From Acaryochloris thomasi RCC1774 (lineage in GTDB: Bacteria > Cyanobacteriota > Cyanobacteriia > Thermosynechococcales > Thermosynechococcaceae), in NCBI RefSeq assembly GCF_003231495.1, contig NZ_PQWO01000006.1, forward strand, positions 180,001-212,000: 32,000 nt of DNA, written 5' to 3'. Position numbers and translations under genes: made by a program. Of the stretch, positions 1 through 24,851 are shown in pieces; the first letter of the stretch is position 1; the number at the start of each line of letters is the position of its first letter. The notes under the pieces were generated by a model, which saw only the letters and a list, made by a program, of their open reading frames with translations, was not told where the DNA came from and ran no database searches.

Positions 1-174
1 AATCAGGCTGGAGCCAGCAGCCAGCGCCATTTCCAGGTATCCAGTGGCGGGCATCACCGCTGTCTCAAACAGACAGTGATCGTTCAGAAAAGCTGGGATC
101 GCAGGACTAACCTGAGACTCAAAGCAAATGTTAGTCATCCCAGCTAGATGGAGGCGCTGCCCCAATAGCGGATG
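1..174 (-). other. Start of a PKS dehydratase (DH) domain, truncated by the window edge
   Basis: HPLLGQRL...FESQVSPAIPAFLNDHCLFETAVMPATGYLEMALAAG follows the post-AT linker (YPFQRHRHW). It matches the DH N-terminal HxxxGxxxxP-region pattern, with Glu in the Gly position. Confidence 0.6.
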
Positions 175-3100
175 CATCGTTTGACTACGGGCATCACTGG
201 GAAGAGCCTGTCCCTGTATTTTTGGTGCAGGATCAATCCAGTGACGGTGACGCTGGAACGGATAGGTCGGCAGCGGCACCCGGTAGCGCTGCTCATCAAC
301 ATAGAAGCCAGCCCAGTCCAGCTTGACACCAGCCTGCCAGAGCTGACCGACGGTTTCGAGTACAAAGCCAACGTCTGAAGCTTCCTCTTTAGGATGGCGA
401 ATGGAGGAAAGCACGACTCGCTCAGCTCCAGTCTGCTTGGAAGCCAGAGACTTCAGCATCCGTCCAGGACCAACTTCCAGAAGGACGCGCGTTTCATCCT
501 CTAACAGTTCCTTGACTCCAGCGGTGAAGCGCACCGTGGATCGGAGATGGTTCGCCCAGTAGCTAGGATCAGTAGCTTCTGCATCTGTAATCCAAGTTCC
601 CGTCACGTTTGAAATGTAGGGAATCTGAGGCGGATTGAGCTGCACCTGTCGCACCCGCTCAGTGAAAGGCTCCAGGATAGGATCCATCATGAAGGAGTGA
701 AAAGCGTGGGATGTGTGCAGGGTTCGGAAGTCAATACTTTCGTCTTCCAGCTTCTGCTTGAGAGCATCAATAGCCTCTGCAGGTCCGGCCACGGTACATA
801 GAGATGGAGCATTACTGGTCGCCAGAGCGAGCTGATCATTCAACAGTGCTTCGACTTCATCTTCTGGCAAGAAAACGGTCAGCATCGAGCCTGACGGCAG
901 GGACTGCATCAACCGGCCCCGTTCTGCAACGAGCGCCAACGCTTCTTCTAGCGAGAAGACGCCCGCTAAGCAAGCCGCCGTATATTCGCCAATGCTGTGG
1001 CCAATCATGGCCTGCGGCTGAATGCCCCAAGCCATCCAGAGCTGAGCAACGGCATACTCTGTGACAAAGAGCGCAGGCTGAGTGATGTTAGTTTGCTTCA
1101 GGAGCTCGGTGTTGGCTGCAGCATCTCCCGAGGTGTTGTAAATGATTTCGCGTAGATCTAGGCCAAGGTGCGGCTCTAGGATTTCTGCGCAGCGATCGAC
1201 TGTTTCTCTGTAAACGCGCTCTGTTTCGTAGAGATCGCGGCCCATATTGACGTATTGAGCGCCCTGTCCCGACAGCATAAAGACAATCGAAGGCTGATGG
1301 GTGTCGGGGGCGTAGATGGCTTCTTCGGGTTCCCATGTGGTTAGGGTTGCGATCGCATCCTCCCCACGTTCACAAACCACTGCTGTCCGATATTCGAACG
1401 CTCGCCGACCCACCTTTGATGTGTAGGCAACATCAGCTAGATTTTCAATCGGAGTCTCACGTAGATAGATAGCAAAATTTTCAACCGCCGCCGCCAGAGC
1501 TTCCTCTGTCTTGCCAGAAAGCACCAATAGCTGCCAGGAACGAGATTCTCCAGAGGCATCTATCTTGGGTGATTCTTCCAGTACCGCATGGGCATTGGTA
1601 CCCCCGACCCCGAACGAGCTAAGCCCTGCCCGACGTGGACCCCCATTCGTCTCCCAAGGCAGCAGCTCTTTGTTGATGTAAAAAGGGCTGTTCTCTAGAT
1701 CAAGCTGAGGATTCGGTGTTTCAAAGTTGACAACTGGCGGAATCTGCTTGTGCTTGAGCGCCAAGGTCGCCTTAATTAAACCCGCAACGCCTGCCGCTCG
1801 ATTCAGATGACCAATATTGCTTTTGATAGATCCCAGGGCACAGAATCCCTGTTGTTCGGTTTGCTCACGAAAGACTTTGGTTAAAGCTGCCACCTCAATG
1901 GGATCGCCCATTTGGGTTCCTGTACCGTGGGTCTCAATGTAGGAAATACTCTCAGGCTCAACTCCAGCCAGAGCGTGAGCCTCAGCAACTACATCTGCTT
2001 GACCATCAACGCTAGGGGCCGTGTAGCCAACCTTCAACGAGCCATCATTATTGAGCGCCGTACTTCTGATCACAGAATAAATATGATCACCGTCAGCCAA
2101 AGCGTCCTCAAGACGTTTTAGAACAACAATTCCAGCTCCATTACCAAGAACAGTTCCCTGCGCCTCAGCATCAAAGGGACGGCAGTGACCATCGGCTGAC
2201 TCAATCCAACCTTCCTCAAAGGGATGGCCTATTCGATGGGGCACATTAATGGTCACGCCTCCCGCCATCGCCATATCGCATTCACCACTGAGGAGGCTCT
2301 GGCAAGCTAAGTGTGTGGCAACTAAAGAAGTCGAGCAGGCCGTATTCACAGAGAATGCAGGCCCTTTCAGATCGAGCTTGTACGAGATCCGAGTGGCGAC
2401 AAAATCTTTATCGTTGGCAATCTCCACCGGACCCGCCCCCATCGACTGGATAAAGTCTGGACGAGACAGAAGATTATTGTGCCAATAGCTGCTGAACAGA
2501 GCACCAGCATAGACCCCAATTCTGCCAGGGAAGGTATCCGGATCGTAGCCTGCATTCTCTAGAGCTTCCCAAGCGCACTCCAACATGATTCGATGCTGGG
2601 GATCAAGCGCAGAAGCCTCCCGAGGACTGAATCCAAAGAAGTACTCATCGAACAGTTCGATATCGTCGATAATCGGGCCTGACTTGACATATCCCGGCTG
2701 GCTCAACAAAGTCGGATCAACGCCAGCGGCCAACAGCTCCTCGTCTGTAAAAGCAGTCAGCGACTCTACGCCATCACAAAGATTCTGCCAGAACTGCTCA
2801 ACAGTATCAGCCCCAGGGAAACGCCCTGCCAAGCCGACGATGGCAATGCCCTCCACGCTTGACGTAGCATCACCCTCGAACCCCTGGTTGCGGCGCTGCT
2901 TTTGGCGCTGCACTCTATCTTTGACAGCCTGAAAAGAAGATCCCGTCGATGGAGCCGCCGTTAAAAACTGCGCTAAAGAATGAACGGTCGGAGACTTAAA
3001 TAGCTCAATTGGGGAAAAGTCAGATTCAAAAAGGCTTGTCAACCGTTGATGGACTTGGGCGAGTAGCAGTGAACCGCCCCCAATTTCAAAGAAATTATCG

Positions 3101-4689
3101 TGAATCCCGACATCCGTTAGACCCAGTACATCCTGCCAGACCTCAAGAATCTGTTTTTCTACCGTAGTCTGAGGCGTAACGTTTGTGCTCCCCGCCGGCT
3201 TAACGGGTTGACGCGGCGTGTAGCTGATGGCCTCTGCCAGCTCAATCGAGGCAATCTCCTGCTCAGGACTTTCAACGATGCCGTTTAGTAGAGACTGATA
3301 GTTTCTGAGAAATGCCGCGATTGTCTCAGCTTCAAATAAATCCGTTTTGTATTCTAAAGCGCCGACTAGCCCGTCCTCTCCTTCCTCCCAGAAAAAAGAT
3401 AGGTCGAAGTCAGCATTTCTCTCAGGTGCTACCATCGCCTCAATCTGAACATCCGGCAGCTGAAAGGGCTGATTTTGGGTGTTGAGCAACGCAAACAGAA
3501 CCTTCGAGATTGAAGGGAGTAAAAGACCCTGAATGTCTCCCAATTGCTGAAACGGCACATCTTGATGCTTAAAGGCATCCAATGATGTCACGCGAACGCG
3601 ATCCAGCAGTTCCTTGAAGCTTGGATTGCCCGATAGCTGACACCGCAGGGGAATAATGTTGTTGAAGTACCCAATCAACTTCTGAATCTCTGGCCGATTG
3701 CGACCGGCAACTGGCGAGCAAACCGTGATATCTTCCTGGCCGACATATCGATACAGAAGCGTTTGGAATGCAGCTAAAAGAGTGACAAAAAGCGTTGTTC
3801 CTGAATCTTTTGCGAGAGACTCTAAAGCAGTCTTCAGAGAGGACGGCAGCGTCAGAGATTGTCGAGTCCCTGCCATTGCCGGGAAAGAGGGTTGTTCGTG
3901 GTCGACAGGTAAAATAACGGATGGACAGCCCTCTAGCTGCTGTTCCCAGTAAGATATTTGTGGCGCTAAAGCACCGGTGGCAATCCAGCTACGCTGCCAG
4001 TTCGAGAAATCAGCATATTGAATCGGCAGATCCGGGACCGTTGCAGGCTGTTTTATCTGATGGGCCTTGTAAATTTCTCCTAGCTCAGAGAAGAATAATC
4101 CCTCTGACCAGCCATCGAAAACAATGTGGTTAATGCATAGACTCAGTACGTTCTGGTCTTCATCCAGTTGAAGTAGCTTAGCTCTTAGAAGAGGTGCTTT
4201 GCCCAAGTCAAAGGGCCGATTGATGTTGTCCTGAACGAGCTGCTTGAGCCTTTCGTCCCGTTGCTCAGCCGACAACTCCCTTAAATCATAGGTTTCAAAA
4301 ATACCGGCAATACTGTCTGAGACAGCCTGTATCGGTGTCCCATCCACCTCTTTAAAGTAGGTTCTTAAAGCCTCATGACGATTCAATACCTCAATCAGGC
4401 TCTGCTCAAGAATTTGCGGATTCAAGGAGCCGTTGAGCCGAAAAGTGTAGGGAATATTGTAGGCACTATTTGACCCAATCTTAGCCAGGAACCAAAGACG
4501 CTCTTGAGCAAAGGAGAGCGGTAGATTCTGGTCCCGACTGACCGGTTCTAAGGGTGGAGCTTGCTTTTGCGCCTCCATAGCGGCTCGAATAGCTTCCCAG
4601 AAGTCCTGTCCTTTCTGGTCAGCGGATGAGTCATTAGTGCCAGGACTTTCAATATCGATTTTTTCTTGATGGTCTGATGCGTCTGGCAC
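1..4689 (-). CDS. Hybrid NRPS-PKS megasynthase, N-terminal 1563 codons (C-T-KS-AT-DH...), 3' end beyond the left window edge
   Basis: Not in the ORF track because there is no stop inside the window. My manual reverse-complement translation is open from 4689 to 1. The GTG at 4689 follows an in-frame TAG and a GAGGAG Shine-Dalgarno 7 nt upstream; an alternative ATG lies near 4577. Domain motifs read directly are listed in the sub-features below. Confidence 0.9.
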   Translation of the reverse strand, partial: MPDASDHQEKIDIESPGTNDSSADQKGQDFWEAIRAAMEAQKQAPPLEPVSRDQNLPLSFAQERLWFLAKIGSNSAYNIPYTFRLNGSLNPQILEQSLIEVLNRHEALRTYFKEVDGTPIQAVSDSIAGIFETYDLRELSAEQRDERLKQLVQDNINRPFDLGKAPLLRAKLLQLDEDQNVLSLCINHIVFDGWSEGLFFSELGEIYKAHQIKQPATVPDLPIQYADFSNWQRSWIATGALAPQISYWEQQLEGCPSVILPVDHEQPSFPAMAGTRQSLTLPSSLKTALESLAKDSGTTLFVTLLAAFQTLLYRYVGQEDITVCSPVAGRNRPEIQKLIGYFNNIIPLRCQLSGNPSFKELLDRVRVTSLDAFKHQDVPFQQLGDIQGLLLPSISKVLFALLNTQNQPFQLPDVQIEAMVAPERNADFDLSFFWEEGEDGLVGALEYKTDLFEAETIAAFLRNYQSLLNGIVESPEQEIASIELAEAISYTPRQPVKPAGSTNVTPQTTVEKQILEVWQDVLGLTDVGIHDNFFEIGGGSLLLAQVHQRLTSLFESDFSPIELFKSPTVHSLAQFLTAAPSTGSSFQAVKDRVQRQKQRRNQGFEGDATSSVEGIAIVGLAGRFPGADTVEQFWQNLCDGVESLTAFTDEELLAAGVDPTLLSQPGYVKSGPIIDDIELFDEYFFGFSPREASALDPQHRIMLECAWEALENAGYDPDTFPGRIGVYAGALFSSYWHNNLLSRPDFIQSMGAGPVEIANDKDFVATRISYKLDLKGPAFSVNTACSTSLVATHLACQSLLSGECDMAMAGGVTINVPHRIGHPFEEGWIESADGHCRPFDAEAQGTVLGNGAGIVVLKRLEDALADGDHIYSVIRSTALNNDGSLKVGYTAPSVDGQADVVAEAHALAGVEPESISYIETHGTGTQMGDPIEVAALTKVFREQTEQQGFCALGSIKSNIGHLNRAAGVAGLIKATLALKHKQIPPVVNFETPNPQLDLENSPFYINKELLPWETNGGPRRAGLSSFGVGGTNAHAVLEESPKIDASGESRSWQLLVLSGKTEEALAAAVENFAIYLRETPIENLADVAYTSKVGRRAFEYRTAVVCERGEDAIATLTTWEPEEAIYAPDTHQPSIVFMLSGQGAQYVNMGRDLYETERVYRETVDRCAEILEPHLGLDLREIIYNTSGDAAANTELLKQTNITQPALFVTEYAVAQLWMAWGIQPQAMIGHSIGEYTAACLAGVFSLEEALALVAERGRLMQSLPSGSMLTVFLPEDEVEALLNDQLALATSNAPSLCTVAGPAEAIDALKQKLEDESIDFRTLHTSHAFHSFMMDPILEPFTERVRQVQLNPPQIPYISNVTGTWITDAEATDPSYWANHLRSTVRFTAGVKELLEDETRVLLEVGPGRMLKSLASKQTGAERVVLSSIRHPKEEASDVGFVLETVGQLWQAGVKLDWAGFYVDEQRYRVPLPTYPFQRHRHWIDPAPKIQGQALPSDARSQTMHPLLGQRLHLAGMTNICFESQVSPAIPAFLNDHCLFETAVMPATGYLEMALAAGSSLI
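440..1290 (-). other. Acyltransferase (AT) domain, malonyl-type signature
   Basis: FMLSGQGAQY, GHSIGEYTAAC (985-1002, Ser codon 994-996), HTSHAFHS (HAFH at 697-708, the motif associated with malonyl-CoA specificity), VLLEVGPG at the end. Confidence 0.9.
1349..1356. repeat. HIP1 octamer GCGATCGC
   Basis: Exact match read in the sequence. Confidence 0.95.
1574..2856 (-). other. Ketosynthase (KS) domain
   Basis: IAIVGLAGRFPGA start. Active-site NTACSTSLVATHLACQSLLSGECDMA (Cys codon 2335-2337), then ETHGTGTQMGDPIE, SIKSNIGHLNRAAGVAG, and SSFGVGGTNAHAVLEE at the end. Confidence 0.92.
2965..3165 (-). other. Thiolation / carrier (T) domain directly after the C domain (approximate borders)
   Basis: EKQILEVWQDVLGLTDVGIHDNFFEIGGGSLLLAQVHQRL. 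The Ser codon of the GGGSL attachment motif is at 3070-3072. Only about 60 residues separate it from the end of the C domain. Confidence 0.75.
3250..4560 (-). other. NRPS condensation (C) domain of the megasynthase (approximate borders)
   Basis: Translated motifs in canonical order: LPLSFAQERLWFL (C1), NHIVFDGWS (C3, HHxxxDG with first His replaced by Asn, at 4111-4131), QYADFSNWQ (C4), IGYFNNIIPLRC (C5), HQDVPFQQL (C6). Confidence 0.8.
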
Positions 4690-4770
4690 TGGGTCACTCC
4701 TCTACGGGCTGAGGTTCACAATCTGATTAATTATCTGGAGGAAATACCGTTTCTATGCAGGACGGTACGA

Positions 4771-5022
4771 CTAAGCGCTTTGCTTGCTTTTCAGCAATTC
4801 TTCAATATTGGCAACGGTTCTAAAGTTATCAAGGTTGATCTCACCCATATCAAACTGAACGCCAAACTCATCCTGTAGCTGAAAGATGAGATTCATCGCG
4901 TTCACTGAGTCCAGTCCGAGCGCAAAAATATCGCTATCGTCTGCGATTTGATCCTCTGTTGTATTTGGTAGAATAGATAGAACAACGGAGTAAATCTTGG
5001 GCTTAATTTCTTCAGCAGTCAT
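4771..5022 (-). CDS. Free-standing acyl/aryl carrier protein
   Basis: The track ORF 4771-5034 starts at TTG; the first ATG (5022) gives 83 aa beginning MTAEEIKPKIY. Phosphopantetheine motif LGLDSVNAMNL (Ser codon 4906-4908). Size and acidic helical character are typical of ACP/ArCP. Confidence 0.85.
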   Translation of the reverse strand: MTAEEIKPKIYSVVLSILPNTTEDQIADDSDIFALGLDSVNAMNLIFQLQDEFGVQFDMGEINLDNFRTVANIEELLKSKQSA

Positions 5023-5114
5023 TTTATAAATCAACTTTTATAAGCGTTACAACCAGGAAATCAATTGTCTGACTAGATCTATCTTTGTGATGGTAGAGAA
5101 GTTACTCCCGAAAC

Positions 5115-5157
5115 TCATGAAAGCAACAGAAGAGCTGGCAAAGAGCCACTTTCATGA
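5115..5157 (-). other. Perfect 9-bp inverted repeat TCATGAAAG / CTTTCATGA with 25-nt loop in the ligase-carrier protein spacer
   Basis: Read directly: 5115-5123 pairs with 5149-5157. The function is unknown; the structure is only a prediction from complementarity. Confidence 0.5.
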
Positions 5158-5174
5158 CTCGTCACCGTCAACGG

Positions 5175-5214
5175 CAGCATCTCATGAAAGCAATTCGCCC
5201 CTGAAGAGATGCTG
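5175..5214 (-). other. Perfect 9-bp inverted repeat CAGCATCTC / GAGATGCTG with 22-nt loop, overlapping a third copy of TCATGAAAG
   Basis: Read directly: 5175-5183 pairs with 5206-5214. CTCATGAAAGCAA at 5181-5193 repeats 5114-5126. Confidence 0.5.
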
Positions 5215-5238
5215 TTAGCTAGAAATAAGGAAAATGAG

Positions 5239-6762
5239 CTAGATCAAGTCCTTACGTAATATTTTACCCAGAGCGCTCTTAGGAATTTCATCTCTGAACT
5301 CAACAATCCTCGGAGTCTTGAAGTCAGCTAGCTTATCTTGGCAGTAACTGATGATGCTAGACTCCTCACATTCTCCCTCAGCAACTACTACGGCTTTGAT
5401 CACCTCCCCTGCATAGGGGCGCTTAGTCCCCACGACCACAACTTCTTTCACATTGGGGTGTGTCGCTAAGAGATTCTCAATTTCAAAGGGATCGACCTTA
5501 TGGCCACCCGTATCAATAAAGATTTTCTTGCGGCCCGTTATGAAGATGTAGCCGTCTTTATCTTTAGTCCCTAGGTCTGACGTGAAATAATGACCTTCTC
5601 GAAAGACCTCTTTGTTAACCTCTGGGGCATCATGATATCCCTGGGTTAGCGTGTTACTCTTGATGGCCAGCTCACCCGTCACGCCGGGTTGCGCCTCGTT
5701 ACCGTCATCACCCATAACTTTGATCTCGACATCTTGCATGGGTTGACCCACAGAGTCGTACCGATGCTCAGGAGATGCCTCCATATTAATTGCGACTGAT
5801 CCCGCCTCTGTACAGCCATAAAGCTGACGAATGGGGAGTCCAAATCGAAGCAAGAATTTGTCAAAAATATCTTTTGCTAGGAAGTTGCCTGCCGAGATAC
5901 ACAGCCGCAGAGTGGATAGATCAATCGTCGGATCGGGAGGCGTAGAGGCCAAAATGCTGTATACGTAAGGCACACTCGGCAAGATCGAGATCTTTTCTGT
6001 TTTGATGAGCTCCAACACTCTAGGCCGACGAAAAACAAAAGGAATTTCAGAAACGACCCCATCCTTTGAATAGGGTTCAAGAATCACCAGTTTGGCTCCT
6101 GAACAAGTTGCTGCTAGCAAGCATTCACCAAACCCGTAGGCGTGATACATCGGCACGCTACAGAAAATACTGTCTTCCATGGTGACGCCTAGCGTTTCAA
6201 CGCAGCTTCTCGCCTGGGAGAAAACGTTCACCTGAGTTCTGCTGACTCTCTTCGGTTTACCGGTGGAACCAGAAGTGTATTGATATAAGACGGCTCCCTC
6301 ATAAGAATCAGTTGATGGATCCTCGGTGGAGGCACCCCGTACGACATCTTCGAATGCGACACCACAGGGAGGGTTGTTCCCAACCACAACTAGCTTTATC
6401 TGTCGGTCGCTTTTATCAATAAGTGCTTGGCAAGTCTCAGCACGGGCTGCATCAGTGATAATGAGCTTCGTCTGGCTGTCTTCAATGTAATGGTTGAGTT
6501 CGCTTTCTTTGAAGGATGGGTTTAAAAGCAATGCGATCGCATGTAGGCGAGAGACCGCGAAAAAGCTGATTAAGAACTCGGGACAATTCGGTAAAACCAA
6601 GGCGATACAATCTGATTCGCTGATTCCCAGAGAACCTAGTCCATTCGCAAGTCTAAGAACTATCTCACGAAGAGCTTGATAAGTGAGTCTTGATTCACCG
6701 CAAACAACGGCATCATTATCTGGATAACTGCTCGCCGTTTTATCCAGCATTTGATTCAACAT
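5239..6762 (-). CDS. Stand-alone adenylate-forming ligase (aryl/acyl-AMP or -carrier-protein ligase)
   Basis: 507 aa with ANL-superfamily core motifs YTSGSTGKPKRV, YGCTEAG, FTSDLGTKDKDGYIFITGRKK and PKSALGKILRKDL. No fused carrier or C domain. It sits between the chorismatase and the carrier protein. Confidence 0.85.
   Translation of the reverse strand: MLNQMLDKTASSYPDNDAVVCGESRLTYQALREIVLRLANGLGSLGISESDCIALVLPNCPEFLISFFAVSRLHAIALLLNPSFKESELNHYIEDSQTKLIITDAARAETCQALIDKSDRQIKLVVVGNNPPCGVAFEDVVRGASTEDPSTDSYEGAVLYQYTSGSTGKPKRVSRTQVNVFSQARSCVETLGVTMEDSIFCSVPMYHAYGFGECLLAATCSGAKLVILEPYSKDGVVSEIPFVFRRPRVLELIKTEKISILPSVPYVYSILASTPPDPTIDLSTLRLCISAGNFLAKDIFDKFLLRFGLPIRQLYGCTEAGSVAINMEASPEHRYDSVGQPMQDVEIKVMGDDGNEAQPGVTGELAIKSNTLTQGYHDAPEVNKEVFREGHYFTSDLGTKDKDGYIFITGRKKIFIDTGGHKVDPFEIENLLATHPNVKEVVVVGTKRPYAGEVIKAVVVAEGECEESSIISYCQDKLADFKTPRIVEFRDEIPKSALGKILRKDLI
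6533..6540. repeat. HIP1 octamer GCGATCGC
   Basis: Exact match read in the sequence. Confidence 0.95.
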
Positions 6763-7035
6763 TGGCCTACCCTATATTTATAAATTTCATCATAATTACG
6801 CTGTCCCAAACCCCTGCGAGCCAAAACATATAGCGAGTTCACTAGAACATTACCGCGTCAAATGTATTGATCCCCAGGAAAGTCATAAAATTGACATCCC
6901 CCCGTCTTCTCACATCTTATCTGATGCACCGATATTCTCATCGAAATCGCTGTCTGCGGGAAGTAAGTATCCACTCATCCCTTCCGCCTGTAATGCTTGG
7001 GGATACTGCGGTTCTAGAATCTATCGACCCTATCT

Positions 7036-8031
7036 CTACCTTTCTTCGATAATGGCTTCAATTTCAATATCTAATTCAAATCGGCAAATATCTGATTTAA
7101 GGTAGATAATGTGATCGTCTTTAGTCGCCATGATCAGCTTTGGGAAAAGCTCTCGAACATGTGCCGCGTCTTCTGCTCGCCTTATATAAACCTTAAAAAT
7201 TCTGTCATGCTTGACGGGATCGGGCATCAGGTTACCGTAGCTCTGACGCTCAAACAAAAGCCCCATCTCCTCAAAGACTAGGCTCATATTGTCAACTGTC
7301 GTATACAGTTGCTCCGTCATGTCTGATAGCGTGACTGACTCATGGCTTTTGATACTAGCCGTTCCCGAGAGGAACCCAACTTGCTTGCTGTCACGCATAA
7401 GAACAGTCCCCCTCGCAAAGCTAGGAGAGCGAGGACCGTAACGCTTCGGATATTTATATGCCGCAATCTGCTCGGGGTTTTCGACATGTTTGCCGTCCTC
7501 TTTACCCGCGACGAAGTACATAACAAGCTTGTTGTCATCGATTCCAACGGCAGAGGCTGCGGGCAGTTTGACATCGAACCCCTCTCCGTAAAAAGCCTCA
7601 AAGGCGAGCGAACGTGCTTTACAGAAAGAGCGATAATTCTCTAGAGAAGAGGTCTCTTCATTGATATATGGAACGTAGTGCCAGACCCGGTATAAATTCC
7701 AGTTTTTGGTCAGCTCCAAGAAATCCATATAAACCTCGTAGGTTGCTTTCTCGAGAGGGAATTCAACCTCTCGTGTCAGCGCTCCGATGAAATAATCATC
7801 ACTCTCTAAAATATGAAAGCCAAATTTTTGATAAACGCGTCCAGGACAAGAAAAAATTCGTTCTCGACTTTCTTCACCCAGTACCGGGATTTTGACGTGG
7901 ACGTCAATGCTCTCTGCCGTTTGTACACACTTGGTCTCACCTCGTCCAAAGAGGACCTGAAGCGTCTTCTGCTGATAAAGCGGCTTGAGTTCATCAGACT
8001 CTTTAGATTCGATGGATGGTTGTGTGACCAT
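7036..8031 (-). CDS. FkbO/Hyg5/XanB2-family chorismatase (chorismate to hydroxybenzoate or dihydroxycyclohexadiene carboxylate)
   Basis: 331 aa. Motifs I associate with this family from memory: YRVWHYVPYIN, NYRSFCKARSLAF, KLPAASAVG, VENPEQIAAYKYPKRYGPRSPSFARG, LSGTASIKSHES, SDICRFELDIEIEA (RidA/YjgF-like C-terminal part). Not verified by HMM. Confidence 0.7.
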   Translation of the reverse strand: MVTQPSIESKESDELKPLYQQKTLQVLFGRGETKCVQTAESIDVHVKIPVLGEESRERIFSCPGRVYQKFGFHILESDDYFIGALTREVEFPLEKATYEVYMDFLELTKNWNLYRVWHYVPYINEETSSLENYRSFCKARSLAFEAFYGEGFDVKLPAASAVGIDDNKLVMYFVAGKEDGKHVENPEQIAAYKYPKRYGPRSPSFARGTVLMRDSKQVGFLSGTASIKSHESVTLSDMTEQLYTTVDNMSLVFEEMGLLFERQSYGNLMPDPVKHDRIFKVYIRRAEDAAHVRELFPKLIMATKDDHIIYLKSDICRFELDIEIEAIIEER

Positions 8032-8980
8032 AATTGCTCCCCAGAATTAATAGCTTAGCGCTTCATAGAAAAACAGCTAAAATATGAAAAAAGATAAAAT
8101 GCTTGTAGAGGCCTCTGATGAATCCCCATCACGGCTTAAGAGTGAATCCATTGATGGTGCCGACCCTTTATCCAAGGTGTAGGTGCTCCCTAGGTTTATT
8201 CTCCGAAGCAACGACCGGCGTGAGCAGTCGGTGCCTACAAAATTCATCGCATAATTCAAAAACTGTAAATTTTAAGAACTATGAAATGGTAGGTGCAAAT
8301 AGCCTTACCTGAAGTGGCGTTTAGATGTTGATTTATCAAAACTAATTTAACCCATCTCTCCTAGTGTTGCCAACTCTTCCGTAGCGTATCTACAAGTAAT
8401 CGCGCTTTCTTGGCGACGCTCACTATTTTGTTCTGCAGAGTCGCAAAGAATCGAAGACTCCTGCTCAAAACCGTTGCTAGGACTCCAGATTGTTTAACAG
8501 ATTGCAATGTAAGAGAGTCAATCATGCCGAGCTATCTCTCAATAACGCACTTTTTATAACCTAGGCTCCAGGCTCAGTAGCCCGGAAATTGCATTGTGCA
8601 AACTGGCGTACTGCTTGTTATTGTCAAAGATGCTGCTCTTTGAATCTGTGTCTTCAACTACTAAACTTTCCATCACAATACTTGAATTATTTCCTTGGGA
8701 AAAATATATATGTCAGCGATACTCTGAGCTGCTAGCCGGATGGTAAAGGCTGGCTCAGCTCTCTATATTTGTGCCTTCAAAGCTGTTTTGGCTTCGTAGA
8801 GAATCCGGGATTTAGTTGTGAAAATGGAAATTTATTAGAGAGATTCTTTTTGAAAATAACGAAAAAACCTGTGGGGAATTCATCTTCTAGACGGCTATGG
8901 TCAATGGAGTGTTGAGTGTGAGAAAGGTAGATCTCTGCTAACCTATATCTCTCTTTACCATCTGCCCTGAATCGATCGCA

Positions 8981-9778
8981 TCATCGATTACTCACCCTCA
9001 GATGAGCTCGGCTAACGACTGTCTTGGTGATTAGCTGCCGCGCTGCAAGCCAGACGAAGGGAGGAATCGTTGTTGCATATCGTCGCCATAGTCGCCCCGG
9101 CTCTTGATATAGACGATATGCCCATTCCATTCCCAATGTTCTTATCCACTGAGGCGCATACTTTTGTAGCCCGGCATAAACGGGGAAGACGCCACCTAGT
9201 CCCACCATGGTGGCGTTGATCCTGCCTCGATGCTGAGCAATCCATTTTTCCTGTTTAGGGCAGCCTAAAGATAGGAAAAGTAAGCCTGCTTCTGTGCCAT
9301 TAATTCTTTCTACGATTTTTTGGTCTTCTTGATCTGTCAGAGGCCGAAAGGGCAAGGACTCCATACCGATAATGTCTAAGCTGGGATATTCACTTTCCAA
9401 TCGCTGACGCATTTTTGCAAGAATCTTTGTCTCAGAACCCAGGAAAAATATGCCGACTTTTTGCTGCTGTGCCTCTTCACAGAGTTTCTTGAGCAGATCC
9501 ATGCCAGCAACTCTTTCTTGGCTGTATGCCCCTAGAAATTTCAGCATCCAGACCAGCGGCATTCCATCTGGGGTGACCAAATCAGCTGAATGTAAAATCT
9601 GTTTGAAGGATGGATCCCAATACGCTTCCATCAGCATGTGAACATTAGCCACACAAATGGTCTTGCTAATATTCTGTTTTGCCCAGGCAATGATCTGAGT
9701 TGCACTTTGCTTTAGAGATAGTGCATTGACATTCGTTCCAATAACCTGGATCTTATCAAGGGTTCTAATATGATTCAT
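8981..9778 (-). CDS. WecB/TagA/CpsF-family glycosyltransferase (WecG/TagA-like)
   Basis: 265 aa with family-typical VTPDGMPLVWM, GIFFLGS and SLGCPKQEKWI motifs. Confidence 0.8.
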   Translation of the reverse strand: MNHIRTLDKIQVIGTNVNALSLKQSATQIIAWAKQNISKTICVANVHMLMEAYWDPSFKQILHSADLVTPDGMPLVWMLKFLGAYSQERVAGMDLLKKLCEEAQQQKVGIFFLGSETKILAKMRQRLESEYPSLDIIGMESLPFRPLTDQEDQKIVERINGTEAGLLFLSLGCPKQEKWIAQHRGRINATMVGLGGVFPVYAGLQKYAPQWIRTLGMEWAYRLYQEPGRLWRRYATTIPPFVWLAARQLITKTVVSRAHLRVSNR

Positions 9779-10219
9779 GCTTTTGATCCGTTTGAATTTG
9801 GAGAGAATGCAGGTTTATTTTTGCTGCCTCTACCCTGCTCTTGATATCTTGCTGAGAGCGAGTAAGAAACGCGTTAGCGCTCGATGTGGTAGTTGCACTG
9901 TATCGATGGAGTCAAGATGCCATATGTTGCCTAGTACCTCGATAAGGTGTAAGTGACGACTAAACTGCAGAGAAGGCAAAATGCCTAAATTACAGCATTA
10001 CGCTGCCAAATAAATTGTGATGGTGTTCTGCAGCCTGTTTTTGAAGACCCGCAACGGATCCTTCCAAAACGCCATCATTTACATGTCTGTTAGAACTGGC
10101 TAATTTATGCAAATGCCCTGCATCGAAGGAGAAGGTCTGCCGTTTTGCAATGCTTCTAGCCAAGCCGTTAAGGGACTCATCGGGTAACTTTTGTGTTAAT
10201 CAAATTAAGTGACGGCACT

Positions 10220-12451
10220 TCAACTCTGGGCATAAATGACAACAGGAACCCGTTTATAGGCGGGGGTCCCACAGCGCGAATCAATTTTTGCTTTGAACAG
10301 CACATTGGCCTCTGGATAGAACATTAGCGCTGCACTTGAGCGGATGTTCCCGTAGATAATTTCTACTTGTTCTAGCTTGTCAGCATTGCCCTGTACGGTG
10401 ACGCGCTGATGATTGCTGAAGCCTGCTTCTTTTGCATCATCTGGGTTCATCAAAATGCAGTTGCGATGGGGCATGGCTCGATAGCGATCGTTCAACTGAT
10501 ACACCACTGTATTGTGTTGACCATAGCTGCGCCCTGTAATCAGCGCTAAGACTAAGCTAGGGATCTGATCCGAGATCCCAAACGCTTCGGCTTTAGGCAA
10601 ATGTAGCTCAGGTATTGGTGTCACCTGCATCTGGGCTTTGCCAGAAGGTGTTAGAAATTTTGGCTGCTTGAAAATGCGTCCGCTGATTGTAAACTCAGCT
10701 TCTGTTTTGTCAATGTCTGCGATGGCTGCGTATCCTGGGATCGTTTGAGCAATCAGTTGCCGGACATACTCTGTATTCTGCAGGCGACGCCAGTCAACTG
10801 GGCTATTCCCTAAAAGCCGATGGGCTAATTCGGTTAAGAACTCGACTTCGGAGATTAGATCTCCTTTCAGGTGGGTTTCGCCTGGATCGTTGAGTCGGAC
10901 AAAGTTATTCCCTGATTCGGTTGTTGTCCGGTGGGGCGTTTCGAAGCGGTTGAAGACGGGGATGATGATGGTGTTTTGATTGGCTAGGCCATGAAAGTGA
11001 CCTAAGTTTGGCTTTGTTGCCAGATAGATTACTGTCTTGATCTTCCCGAATGCGCTTTTGGCCTGGGCAAGGTCTGGGTTGGCAGCGTAGAGGTTGCCGC
11101 CAACACACAGCAGTGTCTCTACTTTGTGGGTGTCTGCAGCTTCAATGAGGGCTCGGGCGTCGTAGCCAGGGACACGGCTCAGAGATTTGCCGAGTAGCGT
11201 TTCTAGGGCCTGCTGAATTTCTTTTTTCAGCTTTGTTGTTACCCCCATGGAGCCAAAGCCTTGGACGTTAGAGTGTCCTCGAATGGGCATGGTGCCTGAG
11301 CCTTCTTTCCCTGCGTTTCCAGTCATGAGGGCAGTATTGGCGATGCTGAATACGTTATCTACGCCGTTGGCTTGCTGGGTGATCCCCATTGCCCATGCCA
11401 GTACAACATTCTGGGCTTGCCCAATGATTTGGGCCGCTGCTTCTATCTCACGCTGGGCAACGCCACAGGTTGCAGTAATGGTGTCCCAGGAAGTCGCATG
11501 AACCTGCTCTATAACTGCTTCCCAGCCATCGACGTGGCCTTGTAGAAAATCAAATTCTACGAGATCCATTGCCAATAATGCTTTCTGAATGCCGACAAAG
11601 AGTGCCACATCGCTGCCGGGAATCGGCTGCAAATATAGTGAGGCAATTTCAGAACCCGTCAATAGCGACTTAATCGGAAAGGCTGGGGAAGCAAATTTGA
11701 CTAATCCTACTTCTTGAACCGGGTTGATGACAATGATGTGACCGTTGCGATCGCGTATTTTAATCAGTTCATTTACGAGTCGGGGATGATTCGCAGGCGC
11801 ATTCGAGCCAACGAGAACGACGCAGTCAGATTTTTTTAGGCTCTTTAAGCTCACCATTGAGGTACCAGAACCAAACACCTGTTTGAGTCCAACGGTGGAT
11901 GGCGCATGACAGAGGTCAGAACAGTCTGCTAGGTTATTAGACCCCAGTGCCCGGATCATCAACTGCAATAGGTACGCAGCTTCGTTAGAGGATCGCCCTG
12001 AACTATAGGAAGCTACTCGCTCAGGTGGGCATTGAAAGGCATCTGTCGCAATCTCATAAAGTTCGTCCCAGCTTAGGCGTTCGTAGTGGCTTTGGCCTGC
12101 CCGTAGGATCACAGGAAAGCTCCAGCGACCAAGCCGGTCTGCTTCATAGGAGGTCAGTTGCTGCAGTTCAGTAAGAGAGTGGCGTTCGAAAAAGTGCTCT
12201 GACACAGCAGGCATTAACTCTGCATGAATAGCCTCAACGCTCTTCATACAGCGCTGCAGAGACTCTCCCACTTCGTTGGTGAATCCGCCATGCTGCCCAC
12301 CTGTGCCCCAAGCACAGGAAAGACAGGCGCTCTTGTGATTAAGGGTTCGCCACAGCCTCGGCCCTCGAGTCGAGAGGGTCTTGGCTGCCCAGTAATGAAT
12401 CACAGGCATCCCACCGCCGACTGTGGGAAGTTGAGGGCGATTCTCTGACAT
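10220..12451 (-). CDS. FdhF/YdeP-family molybdopterin oxidoreductase
   Basis: 743 aa. The N-terminal NHKSACLSCAWGTGGQHGGFTNE block is characteristic of the YdeP group. Length and layout match molybdopterin oxidoreductases. Confidence 0.8.
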   Translation of the reverse strand: MSENRPQLPTVGGGMPVIHYWAAKTLSTRGPRLWRTLNHKSACLSCAWGTGGQHGGFTNEVGESLQRCMKSVEAIHAELMPAVSEHFFERHSLTELQQLTSYEADRLGRWSFPVILRAGQSHYERLSWDELYEIATDAFQCPPERVASYSSGRSSNEAAYLLQLMIRALGSNNLADCSDLCHAPSTVGLKQVFGSGTSMVSLKSLKKSDCVVLVGSNAPANHPRLVNELIKIRDRNGHIIVINPVQEVGLVKFASPAFPIKSLLTGSEIASLYLQPIPGSDVALFVGIQKALLAMDLVEFDFLQGHVDGWEAVIEQVHATSWDTITATCGVAQREIEAAAQIIGQAQNVVLAWAMGITQQANGVDNVFSIANTALMTGNAGKEGSGTMPIRGHSNVQGFGSMGVTTKLKKEIQQALETLLGKSLSRVPGYDARALIEAADTHKVETLLCVGGNLYAANPDLAQAKSAFGKIKTVIYLATKPNLGHFHGLANQNTIIIPVFNRFETPHRTTTESGNNFVRLNDPGETHLKGDLISEVEFLTELAHRLLGNSPVDWRRLQNTEYVRQLIAQTIPGYAAIADIDKTEAEFTISGRIFKQPKFLTPSGKAQMQVTPIPELHLPKAEAFGISDQIPSLVLALITGRSYGQHNTVVYQLNDRYRAMPHRNCILMNPDDAKEAGFSNHQRVTVQGNADKLEQVEIIYGNIRSSAALMFYPEANVLFKAKIDSRCGTPAYKRVPVVIYAQS
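11747..11754. repeat. HIP1 octamer GCGATCGC
   Basis: Exact match read in the sequence. Confidence 0.95.
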
Positions 12452-12766
12452 TTAGGGATGCTCCTGCACAGTAGATATATTGTACGTGCAGTTTTAAATA
12501 ATTTTGCCGTCCACCAAGCAATGGCTCAACAATGTCTGCCTATTTAACTATGGCGATTGACGTTTACGACAAAAGCAAAGCCTCTGGCATAACCAAAGGC
12601 TTCTCGATAGGTGCGGCCCCCCCGCACACTCAGCTAAGTATCTTAATATGTACATTACATTTCAATGGTGAACATCTAGTGAAGGAATATCTTGAGCCGT
12701 TGAGCTTTCTGGCACTTTTTCCTTGCTAGGATAATCAGCGTTAATGAATTCCTCGCGGTTTGATTT
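12452..12766. promoter_or_regulatory. Divergent intergenic region that must hold the promoters of the YdeP-like (-) and aldo/keto reductase (+) genes
   Basis: 315-bp gap between two back-to-back gene starts. No specific -10/-35 elements could be assigned with confidence. Confidence 0.4.
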
Positions 12767-12769
12767 GTG

Positions 12770-13954
12770 ATGCGATATCGACGCTTCGGGCGCACTGAGC
12801 TACAAATGCCTGTCTTTTCCTGTGGCGGAATGCGCTACCAGTATTCTTGGAGAGATGATCAGGTAGAAGGTATCACCCAAGCCAGTCAAGACAATCTTGA
12901 GGCAACGATTCGCCGCGCTCTTGATTTGGGCATCTATCACATTGAGACAGCGAGGGGATATGGTACCTCAGAAGTTCAGTTGGGTCGCATCTTGCCTCAG
13001 CTACCGCGTGAGCCATTGATTATTCAAACAAAGGTTAGCCCTAAGCCAGATGCCGAGGAGTTCCGGCACACGTTTGAGCAGTCTTTGGCCAATCTTCGGC
13101 TTGATTATGTCGATCTGTTGGGGCTGCACGGTATCAATACGCCTGAAATTTTAGAGTACAGTCTTCGACCTGGGGGCTGTCTTGATATCGCCCGTCAGCT
13201 ACAGGCCCAGGGTAAGGTCCGCTTCATCGGCTTTTCGACCCATGGACCCACTCAGGTGATCGTAGATGCGATCGCAACTAACCAATTTGACTATGTAAAC
13301 CTGCACTGGTACTACATCAATCAACATAACTGGCCTGCTTTGATGGCTGCCGCTGAGCGCGATATGGGTGTATTCATCATTAGCCCCTCCAATAAAGGAG
13401 GACTTCTCTATAAACCCTCACAAACACTGCTAGACCTCTGCTTTCCCCTTAGCCCAATGGTGTTTAACGATCTGTTTTGCCTAAGTCATCCACAGGTTCA
13501 TACCCTCAGTCTTGGGGCTGCTCACGCAACAGACTTTGACGAGCATCTCAAGGCCCTTCCCCTTCTAGAGCAGGCTACGCAATATTTACCCCCCATTATT
13601 GAACGGTTGGAAGATGAGGCTATTGAAGTACTAGGAGAAGACTGGGTCAAAAACTGGCATAGAGGACTTCCCGAGCCAGACGAGACGCCGGGCAACCTTA
13701 ACATCCCTGTGATTCTGTGGCTGCGGAACCTTGCGATCGCATATGACATGGTTGAATATGCCAAGATGCGATATAACTTGCTTAGTAACGGGGGACATTG
13801 GTTCCCTGGGAACACAGCCGCCCAAGTGCAAAACCTCGATCTGAATAACTGCTTGAGCGCTAGTCCCTACCAATCTCAGATCCCTGAACTACTAGCAGAT
13901 GCTCACCACCGACTCGGCGACAAACCGCTCCAACGTTTGTCGAAAAGTGAGTGA
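12770..13954 (+). CDS. Aldo/keto reductase family oxidoreductase
   Basis: The track ORF starts at GTG 12767 and an ATG follows at 12770. MRYRRFGRTELQMPVFSCGGMRY, HIETARGYGTSE and DLLGLHGIN resemble AKR N-terminal and active-site blocks. 394 aa. Confidence 0.75.
   Translation: MRYRRFGRTELQMPVFSCGGMRYQYSWRDDQVEGITQASQDNLEATIRRALDLGIYHIETARGYGTSEVQLGRILPQLPREPLIIQTKVSPKPDAEEFRHTFEQSLANLRLDYVDLLGLHGINTPEILEYSLRPGGCLDIARQLQAQGKVRFIGFSTHGPTQVIVDAIATNQFDYVNLHWYYINQHNWPALMAAAERDMGVFIISPSNKGGLLYKPSQTLLDLCFPLSPMVFNDLFCLSHPQVHTLSLGAAHATDFDEHLKALPLLEQATQYLPPIIERLEDEAIEVLGEDWVKNWHRGLPEPDETPGNLNIPVILWLRNLAIAYDMVEYAKMRYNLLSNGGHWFPGNTAAQVQNLDLNNCLSASPYQSQIPELLADAHHRLGDKPLQRLSKSE
13268..13275. repeat. HIP1 octamer GCGATCGC
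   Basis: Exact match read in the sequence. Confidence 0.95.
13733..13740. repeat. HIP1 octamer GCGATCGC
   Basis: Exact match read in the sequence. Confidence 0.95.
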
Positions 13955-14802: not shown

Positions 14803-15993
14803 ATGAAGATTGCTGTAATTGGTGCAAAGGGTTTACCTGCTCAGCAGGGGGGGATAGAACAGCACTGTGCTGAAATATGTGCGCGTATGGCTGCTTGGGG
14901 GCACGAAGTTGACCTCTTTGCCCGACCGTCTTACAACGGGACATCTTGGTTTCATCATGACATTTACCATGGTGTGAGGGTTATCACGTTGCCGAGCTTG
15001 CCCCTCCGAGGAATTGACGCATTCTTGAATTCGGCGCTAGCGGCCATCATGACCTTGAGACGACCGTACGACGTTGTTTTTTTTCATGCCCTGGGACCTT
15101 CTCTGTTCTCCTGGATTCCCAAGCTAGTCACCACCTCTAAAGTCATTTCTGTTTGCCATGGCTTGGATTGGCAGAGGGCTAAGTGGGGTCGGTTTTCAAG
15201 TTTGATGCTACGTCTTGGTGAAAAGACCGCTGCTCACTGCGCAGACGATATCATCGTTGTGTCTCATGCTCTGCAGTCATATTTCTCGCAAGCTCATGCT
15301 AGAGAAACAACCTATATTCCCAACGCACCGGCAAAGTATGCTGACTCAGATCCCAACTTTGCCTATGGACAATCTCTAGGGTTAACGGCAAATAAGTACG
15401 TTTTGTTTCTGGGCAGAATAGTGCCTGAGAAATGTCCAGATCTATTGCTTGAGGCCTTTAGCAAACTGCAGCCAGCCGGCTGGAAACTAGTATTTGTCGG
15501 TGGAGGTAGCGACACCGAAGAATTCTCAACAGATTTGCAAAAACGTGCTACGGGTCGGATGGATATCGTTTTTACCGGTCAGCTAAAGGGCAAGTTTCTA
15601 GCTGAAATAGTTAGAGGATCAGGTTTATTTGCCTTGCCTTCTGATTTAGAGGGTTTGCCCCTAGCGATGCTGGAAGCGATGCGAGAAGGTATCCCAGTTC
15701 TTGCCAGTGATATCCTTGTTCATCAGCAATTACTGGGGCGGGATCGGGGTGTTTTGTTTAAAGCTGGAGATCTTGAATCATGTATCGAAGCTTTGGACTG
15801 GTCGATTAACCATTCTGGCAATTTAGCGGAAATGGCCCACGCAGCTCAGAAACACATTCAGAGACATTACGATTGGGACGGCATCACAATTGAAACGCTG
15901 AACCTATGCTTTGCCCTCCTTGGAAGCAGCCCAGATGTTTCTCTGCCCATTATTTCTACTCAAGGTAAAAAATACTTTAGACATAGAATGTAG
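14803..15993 (+). CDS. Glycosyltransferase family 4 (GT-B, retaining type)
   Basis: 396 aa. N-terminus MKIAVIGAKGLPAQQGGIEQHCAEICARMAAWGHEV (DUF1972-like GT4 start). C-terminal EGLPLAMLEAM E-x7-E motif. Confidence 0.8.
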   Translation: MKIAVIGAKGLPAQQGGIEQHCAEICARMAAWGHEVDLFARPSYNGTSWFHHDIYHGVRVITLPSLPLRGIDAFLNSALAAIMTLRRPYDVVFFHALGPSLFSWIPKLVTTSKVISVCHGLDWQRAKWGRFSSLMLRLGEKTAAHCADDIIVVSHALQSYFSQAHARETTYIPNAPAKYADSDPNFAYGQSLGLTANKYVLFLGRIVPEKCPDLLLEAFSKLQPAGWKLVFVGGGSDTEEFSTDLQKRATGRMDIVFTGQLKGKFLAEIVRGSGLFALPSDLEGLPLAMLEAMREGIPVLASDILVHQQLLGRDRGVLFKAGDLESCIEALDWSINHSGNLAEMAHAAQKHIQRHYDWDGITIETLNLCFALLGSSPDVSLPIISTQGKKYFRHRM

Positions 15994-16116
15994 ATCTAAA
16001 TCGTGTCTCTACCAATGGGTGAGAAGTAACGAGTTAAATATCCCTACTTTCGATATTAAGTGGCTAGTATAGGTATTAGGTATTTTAATTTTTAAGTGCA
16101 GCAGTAAGGTATCTCC

Positions 16117-18228: not shown

Positions 18229-18289
18229 TAGCTTTATTGAAGTTGTTTCGTCCTCAATAGGAGTGAGTTTGGCTGTTGCTTAAATCAGG

Positions 18290-19795: not shown

Positions 19796-19802
19796 GCTGA
19801 CG

Positions 19803-20591: not shown

Positions 20592-20629
20592 CGTTCTTTT
20601 TTTTCATGCTGTGTCATGGATTTTGTGTT

Positions 20630-20637
20630 GCGATCGC
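20630..20637. repeat. HIP1 octamer GCGATCGC
   Basis: Exact match read in the sequence, in the spacer between the first sulfotransferase and the first GT2. Confidence 0.95.
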
Positions 20638-20693
20638 AAGCAATATTCCGATTTTTTCTATAGCTTATTTTCGCTAAATCCTAGTTGATTGGT

Positions 20694-21659: not shown

Positions 21660-21696
21660 ACTAAAATGGTCTATATATCACGATTAGTCTCAAGAG

Positions 21697-22716: not shown

Positions 22717-22803
22717 AAGTCTTTTCTAATCTGCATGAATCTGAACGGACTCTGCAGCTTGAGGTACTTGCGTCGCCAATGATGTCCAAATTTTGCTTAG
22801 CCT

Positions 22804-23913: not shown

Positions 23914-24048
23914 ACTTCACATAGATAAGCTGTAGATACCGAAAAGCTCTATGAGTGGCTAAAGTATTGCGTCGGGCCTTTGTTGTAGAGAGGCAATCCT
24001 AAGCTTTATCTTTTTAGTATGCTGTTTCTCCTTTATACCTCATTCTAA

Positions 24049-24846: not shown

Positions 24847-24851
24847 TCCAA

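Follow-up and report, generated by a model that had tools for sequence, protein, structure and literature searches.

Several described biosynthetic systems place an aryl acid on a carrier protein, and they are compared here with a four-gene locus in a stretch of DNA of 32,000 nt (the window) from the cyanobacterium Acaryochloris thomasi RCC1774 (NZ_PQWO01000006.1, 180,001-212,000), which encodes a chorismatase, a stand-alone adenylating ligase, a free carrier protein, and the N-terminal part of a hybrid nonribosomal peptide synthetase (NRPS)-polyketide synthase (PKS). In the enterobactin-type layout, EntE, EntB, and EntF provide a ligase, an aryl carrier, and a C-A-T-TE protein (C, condensation; A, adenylation; T, carrier; TE, thioesterase domain), respectively. 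The priming of mycobacterial p-hydroxyphenylalkanoates and phenolic glycolipids involves the chorismate lyase Rv2949c, the ligase-aryl carrier protein (ArCP) FadD22, and Pks15/1. A cyanobacterial example is ambigol, whose pathway in Symphyonema bifilamentata (= Fischerella ambigua 108b), said to have been described by Kresna et al. in 2021, reportedly comprises the 3-deoxy-D-arabino-heptulosonate 7-phosphate (DAHP) synthase Ab7, the chorismate lyase Ab5, the stand-alone adenylation enzyme Ab6, the acyl carrier protein (ACP) Ab8, and Ab9, a C-PCP-TE protein (PCP, peptidyl carrier protein). The 4-hydroxybenzoate (4-HBA) made by Ab5 is said to be activated by Ab6, tethered and chlorinated on Ab8, transferred by the C domain to the PCP, and freed by the TE of Ab9. 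In xanthomonadin and arcuflavin biosynthesis, a chorismatase (XanB2/ArcB), a hydroxybenzoate AMP-ligase (XanA2/ArcT), and a carrier form the priming trio (PMC3949708), and enzymes of the same chorismatase family (FkbO/RapK, Hyg5/Cuv10/Nat-hyg5) give the chorismate-derived starter of actinomycete polyketides and depsipeptides (PMC7170507).

The locus of A. thomasi resembles each of these systems in part. As originally predicted, its trio of chorismatase, ligase, and ACP follows the xanthomonadin-type initiation logic, with the link between chorismatase and ligase supported by gene fusions in relatives. However, the xanthomonadin and aryl-polyene pathways use dissociated enzymes of the type II fatty acid synthase (FAS) kind, namely ketosynthase/chain length factor (KS/CLF), ketoreductase (KR), and dehydratase (DH), without a C domain, whereas the window encodes a type I KS-AT-DH series (AT, acyltransferase) on one polypeptide. 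Because the starter would reach a type I module by way of a C-T pair and be extended there, the locus is not regarded as a member of the xanthomonadin pathway. The mycobacterial FadD22-Pks15/1 system likewise holds a chorismate-derived hydroxybenzoate on a carrier and extends it by a type I PKS module with a DH-containing loop, but it has neither chorismatase nor C domain, its carrier is fused to the ligase, and it belongs to another phylum. The FK506 and rapamycin systems differ in their CoA ligase-enoylreductase-ACP (CoL-ER-ACP) loading module and in their dihydroxycyclohexene acid. The enterobactin layout of ligase, free carrier, and C-A-T-TE protein is found in L013, L014, and L016 (L001, L002, and so on are labels of the homologous loci compared), whereas the window has neither A domain nor TE, and its aryl acid would come from a chorismatase rather than an isochorismate route.

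The likeness to ambigol, which is taken here by description only, covers the cyanobacterial host, a chorismate-derived hydroxybenzoate, a free adenylating enzyme, a free ACP, and an A-less C-carrier pair, and relatives of the window cassette also carry a DAHP synthase and an Rv2949c/UbiC-like lyase. A free adenylating enzyme and a free ACP do stand beside an A-less protein beginning with C-T in the window, but a terminal TE does not, as KS follows T and no TE remnant occurs in the window. The two systems differ further in the use of a chorismatase in place of a chorismate lyase, in the lack of a halogenase or P450 in the window, and in the fusion of T to KS-AT-DH where the ambigol TE releases the free acid.

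The locus is interpreted as the start of an aryl-primed hybrid assembly line, a statement to which, with the hand-over between carriers included, a probability of about 0.6 is assigned; the generic reading as an aryl-starter locus is considered quite probable. An A domain is lacking from the genes, which provide one adenylating enzyme of the carboxylic-acid type, a free ACP and a T domain as the two sites for carrier-bound groups, and, placed between these in the pathway order, one catalytically intact C domain. In the proposed mechanism, the chorismatase would convert chorismate into 3-hydroxybenzoate (3-HBA), possibly also 4-HBA, as judged by family membership and active-site residues. The ligase would adenylate that hydroxybenzoate and thioesterify it onto the free 83-aa carrier, for which conserved adjacency and fusions in relatives argue. 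Subsequently, the aroyl group would be moved off the free carrier by the N-terminal C domain of the megasynthase, which would attach it to the phosphopantetheine thiol of the T domain in the same module. Because the C-T module is without an A domain, hand-over to its own T is judged the most likely role of the C domain, and amide formation is not. This carrier-to-carrier aroyl transfer is nevertheless the weakest link of the proposal, with the chances about evenly divided. In most relatives, a TE would then free the benzoic acid, often tailored; in the window, KS-AT-DH occupies the place of the TE, and the aroyl-S-T would prime the KS. The malonyl-specific AT would give the first extender, and a reductive loop with at least a DH would lead to a hydroxycinnamoyl- or hydroxyphenylpropionyl-type intermediate, to be passed on to further modules beyond the left edge. 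The original expectation that the megasynthase would "condense and extend" the starter thus stands for extension, the KS-AT-DH domains being present, and not for condensation of the amide type, which is not the likeliest reaction for a C-T pair without A.

The identification of the 331-aa protein as a chorismatase was borne out. It matches Pfam PF21168 (FkbO_Hyg5-like_N) with 66.9 bits (gathering threshold 27, E 2.2e-18) and NCBIfam TIGR04444 (FkbO/Hyg5 subfamily) with E 8.8e-51, and the score above the PF21168 gathering threshold disposes of the concern that it is only a generic RidA-like protein. Among the sequences of solved structures in PDB, it matches Hyg5 (5AG3, E 7e-38) and FkbO (4BPS, E 5e-27) over residues 76/95-328. 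E334 of Hyg5 aligns with E323 of the window protein, which is invariant in 24 homologues, and the equivalent Glu of the C-terminal YjgF-like domain is the catalytic residue in chorismatases. The CH-II type (Hyg5-type, producing 3-HBA only) bears a Gly/Gly/Cys signature, represented by G164, G231, and C318 in Nat-hyg5 (PMC7170507). At the corresponding positions of Hyg5 (G173/G240/C327), the window enzyme has A161/G223/C316, so that two of the three residues agree and the full CH-II signature is absent; FkbO has Gly/Ala/Ala at the same three aligned positions. The Ala/Gly/Cys pattern also occurs in homologues of about 40% identity from Verrucomicrobiota, the nearest non-cyanobacterial relatives, which have the AASAVG, SGTAS, and DICR residues in common with the window enzyme and whose genes adjoin ligase and type II KS genes in xanthomonadin- or aryl-polyene-like loci. 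This shared pattern points towards a XanB2-like type. In addition, a 91%-identical homologue of the Joint Genome Institute (JGI) is annotated as "chorismate lyase / 3-hydroxybenzoate synthase". Based on the signature residues, the verrucomicrobial pattern, and this annotation, the product is predicted to be 3-HBA, perhaps with 4-HBA, as in XanB2. The level of identity to Hyg5 and FkbO is low; actinomycete plasmid genes of the FkbO/Hyg5 family are 34-39% identical to the window chorismatase (tblastn), and the plasmid collection yielded only actinomycete and Caballeronia chorismatases, in the same range of 34-39% identity.

The stand-alone ligase belongs, as predicted, to the ANL superfamily (acyl-CoA synthetases, NRPS adenylation domains, and luciferases), with Pfam AMP-binding (E 4e-77) and AMP-binding_C matches and intact core motifs A3, A5, A8, and A10 (YTSGSTGKPK, YGCTE, GRKK..GGHKV, and PKSALGK). 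Motif A4 reads PMYHAYGF and places Ala at the position equal to Asp235 of amino-acid-activating domains, and the enzyme is therefore not taken for an amino-acid activator. No NCBIfam equivalog model reached its cut-off, and the nearest PDB relatives are oxalate, feruloyl, 4-coumarate, and benzoate-CoA ligases together with DhbE. A function as hydroxybenzoate:ACP ligase, acting on the product of the chorismatase, is inferred because the two genes are conserved as neighbours and are fused in relatives, which is a Rosetta-stone argument. A reading of the enzyme as a fatty-acyl-AMP-ligase was set aside in view of its adjacency to and fusion with the chorismatase and of the shikimate-supply genes that accompany the pair in relatives. 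The free-standing carrier of 83-87 aa was likewise correctly recognized, with a PP-binding match (E 1.8e-12) and the phosphopantetheine Ser in LDSV; matches to ACP models of NCBIfam were below threshold only, and the L001 homologue was called with a length of 83 aa.

The megasynthase is missing from the list of open reading frames (ORFs), as had been pointed out, because its frame runs off the end of the window. Translation of the minus strand gives 1567 open codons from 4701 to the left edge, with a GTG start at 4689 that lies 7 nt downstream of the Shine-Dalgarno-like GAGGAG. The anticipated order C-T-KS-AT(HAFH)-DH is reproduced by the Pfam domains, whose motifs are intact: Condensation at residues 54-486 (E 3.8e-92), PP-binding at 513-576 (E 1.3e-11), KS at 614-990, a KS-AT linker, Acyl_transf_1 at 1136-1413 (E 6e-56), and PKS_DH_N at 1506-1562 (E 4e-15, profile positions 1-57 of 103). 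The T domain matches the PCPs of GrsA and TycC and is separated from C by 26 residues and from KS by 37. The KS retains its Cys-His-His triad, and the best homologues of the KS-AT part, with about 55-59% identity, are the KS-AT parts of ordinary C-A-T-KS-AT hybrid synthases. The HAFH motif of AT domains denotes malonyl specificity in PKS, indicating that the putative extender here is malonyl-CoA. With the KS triad, the GHSxG and specificity motifs of the AT, and a DH of the reductive loop in cis, complete with its catalytic His, the features of a modular type I cis-AT PKS are present; the ACP belonging to this module would, like any later modules, lie past the window edge. Between the C-T and KS-AT parts, GC content and its third-codon-position value (GC3) show only a slight difference, which is of no use as evidence of a recent fusion.

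The gene order chorismatase, ligase, ACP, and C-first protein recurs in about 20 cyanobacterial loci. All close homologues of the chorismatase (59-93% identity) are cyanobacterial, and wherever the contig is long enough, the chorismatase is followed by the orthologous ligase, the small ACP, and a C-first protein, as seen in loci of Symploca, Pseudanabaenales, Pleurocapsa, Symplocastrum, Caldora, Halomicronema, and Microcoleus. In 3 genomes (L014, L015, and L016), chorismatase and ligase form a single ORF of 836-842 aa. The predicted functional link from chorismatase through ligase and ACP to the C-first megasynthase is backed by this recurrent order, the fusions, and the ratios of nonsynonymous to synonymous divergence (dN/dS) given below. 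In several relatives, the cassette is enlarged by a gene for a luciferase-like monooxygenase, located between those for ligase and ACP, and by genes for an Rv2949c-like chorismate pyruvate-lyase and a DAHP synthase; the latter two fit a supply from the shikimate pathway to a pathway that would draw on chorismate.

A ten-gene version of the cassette is conserved in L011 (Symplocastrum torsivum, ~7.3-19.4 kb) and L132 (Microcoleus sp. FACHB-SPT15, ~0.7-12.6 kb), with genes for a Zn-dependent alcohol dehydrogenase (Zn-ADH), a metallo-beta-lactamase-fold protein, chorismatase, ligase, luciferase-like monooxygenase, ACP, Rv2949c-like lyase, DAHP synthase, and C-T-TE, so that chorismatase and chorismate lyase occur within one cluster. 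In Halomicronema hongdechloris C2206 (L131:7036-8082, 12364-13482), a DDE transposase lies between the chorismatase and a shortened ligase, and a second transposase follows the cassette, which suggests decay or mobility of the cassette in this strain. A second cyanobacterial chorismatase clade of about 50% identity, with members in Scytonema HK-05, Aetokthonos, Okeania, Moorena, and others (L017-L027 and L043), resembles Hyg5 and FkbO in bearing Gly as its first signature residue (TG[VI]G); because no homologue of ligase, ACP, C, or KS was found within 10 kb of its members, it is assigned to a different system.

The fourth gene of the cassette encodes an A-less C-T-TE protein of 780-910 aa in L002, L003/4, L006, L010, L011, L015, L131, and L132, and a C-A-T-TE protein in L013, L014, and L016. 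Continuation as C-T-KS-AT is seen only in the window and L001, while L007 ends within the T domain and L130 holds the C domain only, so that the C-T/KS junction is not covered in these two, which are at least 79% identical to the window in the part present. No A domain was found in or beside the four-gene cassettes of L002, L003, L006, L010, and L131 (within 10 kb). A search with the C-T region of the window returned mostly cyanobacterial A-less proteins (C-T-TE, C-T-R with a reductase domain, and C-T), and none of the best 120 matches contained a KS. In a neighbour-joining (NJ) tree of C domains, computed without bootstrap, the window and L001 nest inside the A-less N-terminal C clade of the C-T-TE proteins, with P0241 and the cassette proteins L003, P0242, P0245, and L131 as neighbours, and ordinary C-A-T-KS hybrids have C domains outside this clade, across which HHxxxDG is kept. 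The simplest history, as read from these sequences, would be that of a C-T-TE off-loading protein whose TE was lost to a segment beginning with KS-AT-DH. Between the window and L001 (81-92% identical), dN/dS is 0.055 for C, 0.046 for KS, 0.033 for AT, 0.043 for the ligase, 0.029 for the chorismatase, and 0.016 for the ACP, with an overall range of 0.02-0.09 over the four genes and domains and dS at or beyond 1 (saturated). On these ratios, all four genes are under strong purifying selection. Because dN/dS is low while dS is at least 1, the C-T-KS fusion is judged functional and not decaying.

The A-less C-T family appears to have another branch in L133 (Scytonema sp. NUACC26, 1-13.6 kb), in which an A-less C-T-reductase protein is accompanied by an Rv2949c-like chorismate lyase, three sulfotransferases, an adenosine 5'-phosphosulfate (APS) kinase, Asp/Arg hydroxylase-like proteins, a thiamine diphosphate (ThDP) enzyme, and a radical S-adenosylmethionine (SAM) protein; no ligase or ACP was called nearby.

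The cassette as such is common in cyanobacteria, and by comparison of these loci its only unusual part is the PKS (KS-AT-DH) in place of the TE. The original statement that the combination has not been described therefore survives in part: the type I PKS fusion is rare and no description of it was found, but the chorismatase version with C-T-TE is widespread in cyanobacteria, and the logic of ligase, free ACP, and A-less C-carrier pair has a characterised cyanobacterial counterpart in the reported ambigol pathway. A search of the literature, which is searchable only incompletely, returned no description of cyanobacterial chorismatase clusters, of C-T-TE, or of an A-less C-T-KS loader.

Several observations weigh against the proposed aryl-primed line. 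The nearest solved structures of the C domain (5U89, Txo1/2, and TycC) are canonical peptide-bond-forming C domains; it keeps the motifs of ordinary amide-forming C domains and bears no sign in its sequence of a thiol acceptor, and the A domain of the C-A-T-TE relatives carries Asp235, so that amide formation does occur within the family. The hand-over is drawn by analogy with the reported ambigol pathway. As for the chorismatase, its TIGR04444 score of 173 bits is below the 325-bit cut-off, which places a protein that is by its match clearly homologous to this family outside the actinomycete-centred trusted range of the model; its first signature residue is Ala where Hyg5 has Gly, and the product of a chorismatase is not reliably deducible from alignment (PMC3949708). 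The gaps between the four genes amount to 81-273 bp, and co-transcription is a prediction only. Finally, the assembly line ends about 57 residues into the DH, and no full-length orthologue of the megasynthase was found in the following searches. The closest contigs, L001 (91%), L007 (93%), and L130 (88%), stop inside or before the megasynthase gene. The relatives retrieved by a word-indexed search with the 1563-aa fragment were at most 59% identical and all of other architectures; a metagenome scan with the AT-DH part gave only matches of at most 58% identity; and an exhaustive search of representatives with C-T-KS was dominated by multimodular synthases of 4-8 kaa. Exact look-up of the chorismatase and ACP sequences of the window found no identical record in the collections searched.

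Among the rival explanations, one shares the aryl starter and differs in the role of the C domain. The T domain might receive an amino acid, or a different acid with an amine group, from an A domain acting in trans and encoded past the left edge or at another place in the genome, so that C would form an N-aroyl-aminoacyl thioester for extension by the PKS. The peptide-bond-forming activity of the closest solved C domains and the Asp235-type A domains in the C-A-T-TE proteins of L013, L014, and L016 speak for such a role, and NRPS systems are known to include A-less modules that are loaded in trans. Yet the C domain of the window groups with the A-less clade and apart from the C-A-T-TE members, an A domain is missing within 10 kb of many four-gene cassettes, and the sole adenylating enzyme of the locus has Ala at the Asp235 equivalent, which together make this explanation rather unlikely. 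A ligase acting on a different carboxylic acid, such as a fatty acid or a cinnamate, with the chorismatase serving another purpose and the starter not derived from chorismate, would accord with the generic character of its best matches in NCBIfam and PDB (long-chain fatty-acid, oxalate, feruloyl, and 4-coumarate CoA ligases), with no equivalog cut-off reached. This view is improbable, as chorismatase and ligase adjoin in every close relative and are fused in the three genomes mentioned, shikimate-supply genes co-occur, and XanB2-type chorismatases pair with a 3-HBA-activating AMP-ligase in the arcuflavin and xanthomonadin clusters (PMC3949708).

The chorismatase could also, like XanB2, make 4-HBA for quinones or 3-HBA as a diffusible signal, and stand beside the synthase by coincidence. 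XanB2 does tie chorismate to ubiquinone and the diffusible factor (DF) signal (PMC3949708, PMC5714133), but its counterparts here are kept together with ligase, ACP, and C-T across distant cyanobacteria with otherwise different flanks, and cyanobacterial loci have a separate Rv2949c-like chorismate lyase; the signal or quinone role is accordingly very improbable, and the primary-metabolism reading was rejected on the same two grounds. Equally hard to credit is the view that the C-T-KS fusion has no function and is a remnant left by decay or chimerism, or an error of assembly. Only partial copies are available and L130 has split genes, as such a view would expect, whereas the C-T-KS-AT frame is uninterrupted in two independent assemblies (window and L001), dN/dS is 0.03-0.09 per domain despite saturated synonymous divergence, and all catalytic motifs are intact. 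A pseudogene reading was rejected in view of the low dN/dS, the intact motifs, and the open frame in both loci.

If the aryl-primed interpretation is true, a self-contained cassette for making and releasing a benzoic acid would have become a PKS loading stage by exchange of its TE for KS-AT-DH. The further proposal that an A-less C-T didomain, recruited from cyanobacterial C-T-TE proteins, represents a new kind of PKS loading module leading to a so far undescribed group of hydroxyphenyl-capped polyketides is tentative, with the odds slightly against it. Such a module would extend the little-studied carrier-to-carrier acyl transfer by C domains to PKS priming and offer a portable means of feeding aryl starters to engineered synthases. 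The chorismatase-ligase-ACP-C-T-TE cassettes, common and uncharacterised in cyanobacteria, are tractable for in vitro reconstitution. The present locus is an orphan lead for genome mining, of limited practical value as its synthase is cut at the window edge.

Table 1. Coordinates of the genes, domains, and spacer of the aryl-starter locus in the window, and of the chorismatase-ligase fusions in related loci.
Feature	Position	Strand	Remarks
Chorismatase	7036-8031	-	331 aa; FkbO/Hyg5/XanB2 family
Stand-alone ANL ligase	5239-6762	-	507 aa; AMP-binding + AMP-binding_C
Free carrier protein	4771-5022 (ATG, 83 aa) or 4771-5034 (TTG, 87 aa)	-	PP-binding
Hybrid megasynthase, N-terminal 1563 aa, C-T-KS-AT-DH	1-4689	-	Continues past left window edge
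Condensation domain without partner adenylation domain	3232-4530	-	PF00668; active-site motif NHIVFDG at 4111-4131, with His188 as the second, catalytic His of HHxxxDG
PCP-type carrier (T) domain	2962-3153	-	PF00550; Ser in GGGSLL, 3064-3081
Ketosynthase	1720-2850	-	PF00109 + PF02801; TACSTS, HGTGT, NIGH
Acyltransferase	451-1284	-	PF00698; GHSIGE, HAFH
PKS dehydratase, first 57 residues	4-174	-	PF21089; His in HCLFETAVMP; rest beyond window
Spacer upstream of chorismatase, 949 bp	8032-8980		Non-coding; probable right-hand border and promoter region
Chorismatase-ligase fusion ORF, uncultured cyanobacterium	L014:9968-12493		
Chorismatase-ligase fusion ORF, Symploca sp. SIO2C1	L015:9983-12493		
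Chorismatase-ligase fusion ORF, Caldora sp.	L016:9983-12511		

As listed in Table 1, the four co-directional genes of the minus strand were recovered by ORF listing and translation at exactly the coordinates originally proposed. The spacer upstream of the chorismatase contains only short ORFs of up to 64 aa, apart from an 81-aa plus-strand ORF (7813-8058) overlapping the chorismatase start; it gave no match in an Rfam search, and matches to promoter and terminator consensus sequences in it are at chance level only. To its right lie genes for a WecG glycosyltransferase, a molybdopterin oxidoreductase, and an aldo-keto reductase, followed by a polysaccharide cluster, and because these rightward genes serve other functions, the spacer is taken as the right border of the cluster. 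Of the accessory genes seen in relatives (luciferase-like monooxygenase, chorismate lyase, DAHP synthase, and TE), the window holds no remnant.

The ligase-ACP spacer, which in relatives is the site of the luciferase-like monooxygenase gene, contains the decamer CTTTCATGAG twice on the minus strand, 67 nt apart (window 5114-5123 and 5181-5190), with the inverted copy TCATGAAAG between the two; by chance, about 0.09 copies are expected in the window. The folding of this spacer is not better than that of shuffled sequence (z = -0.35).

The genes for WecG, the 743-aa molybdopterin oxidoreductase, and the aldo-keto reductase (window 8981-13954) occur in the same order beside the cassette in L001 (4134-8877), and WecG is also kept beside it in L130, while the arrangement has no counterpart in more distant relatives. 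Since this synteny is limited to close relatives, it is attributed to recent shared ancestry and not to membership of the cluster. Further to the right, the co-directional plus-strand genes at 14803-31722 encode a glycosyltransferase (GT) of the GT4 type, a Wzc-like chain-length/tyrosine-kinase protein, a Wzy_C polymerase/ligase, three GT2s, another GT1, a nucleotidyl transferase, and an MBOAT O-acyltransferase, together with two clear sulfotransferases (19803-20591 and 24852-25829) and one weak candidate (24049-24846, E 0.007), and this region looks like a locus for a sulfated, possibly O-acylated exopolysaccharide.

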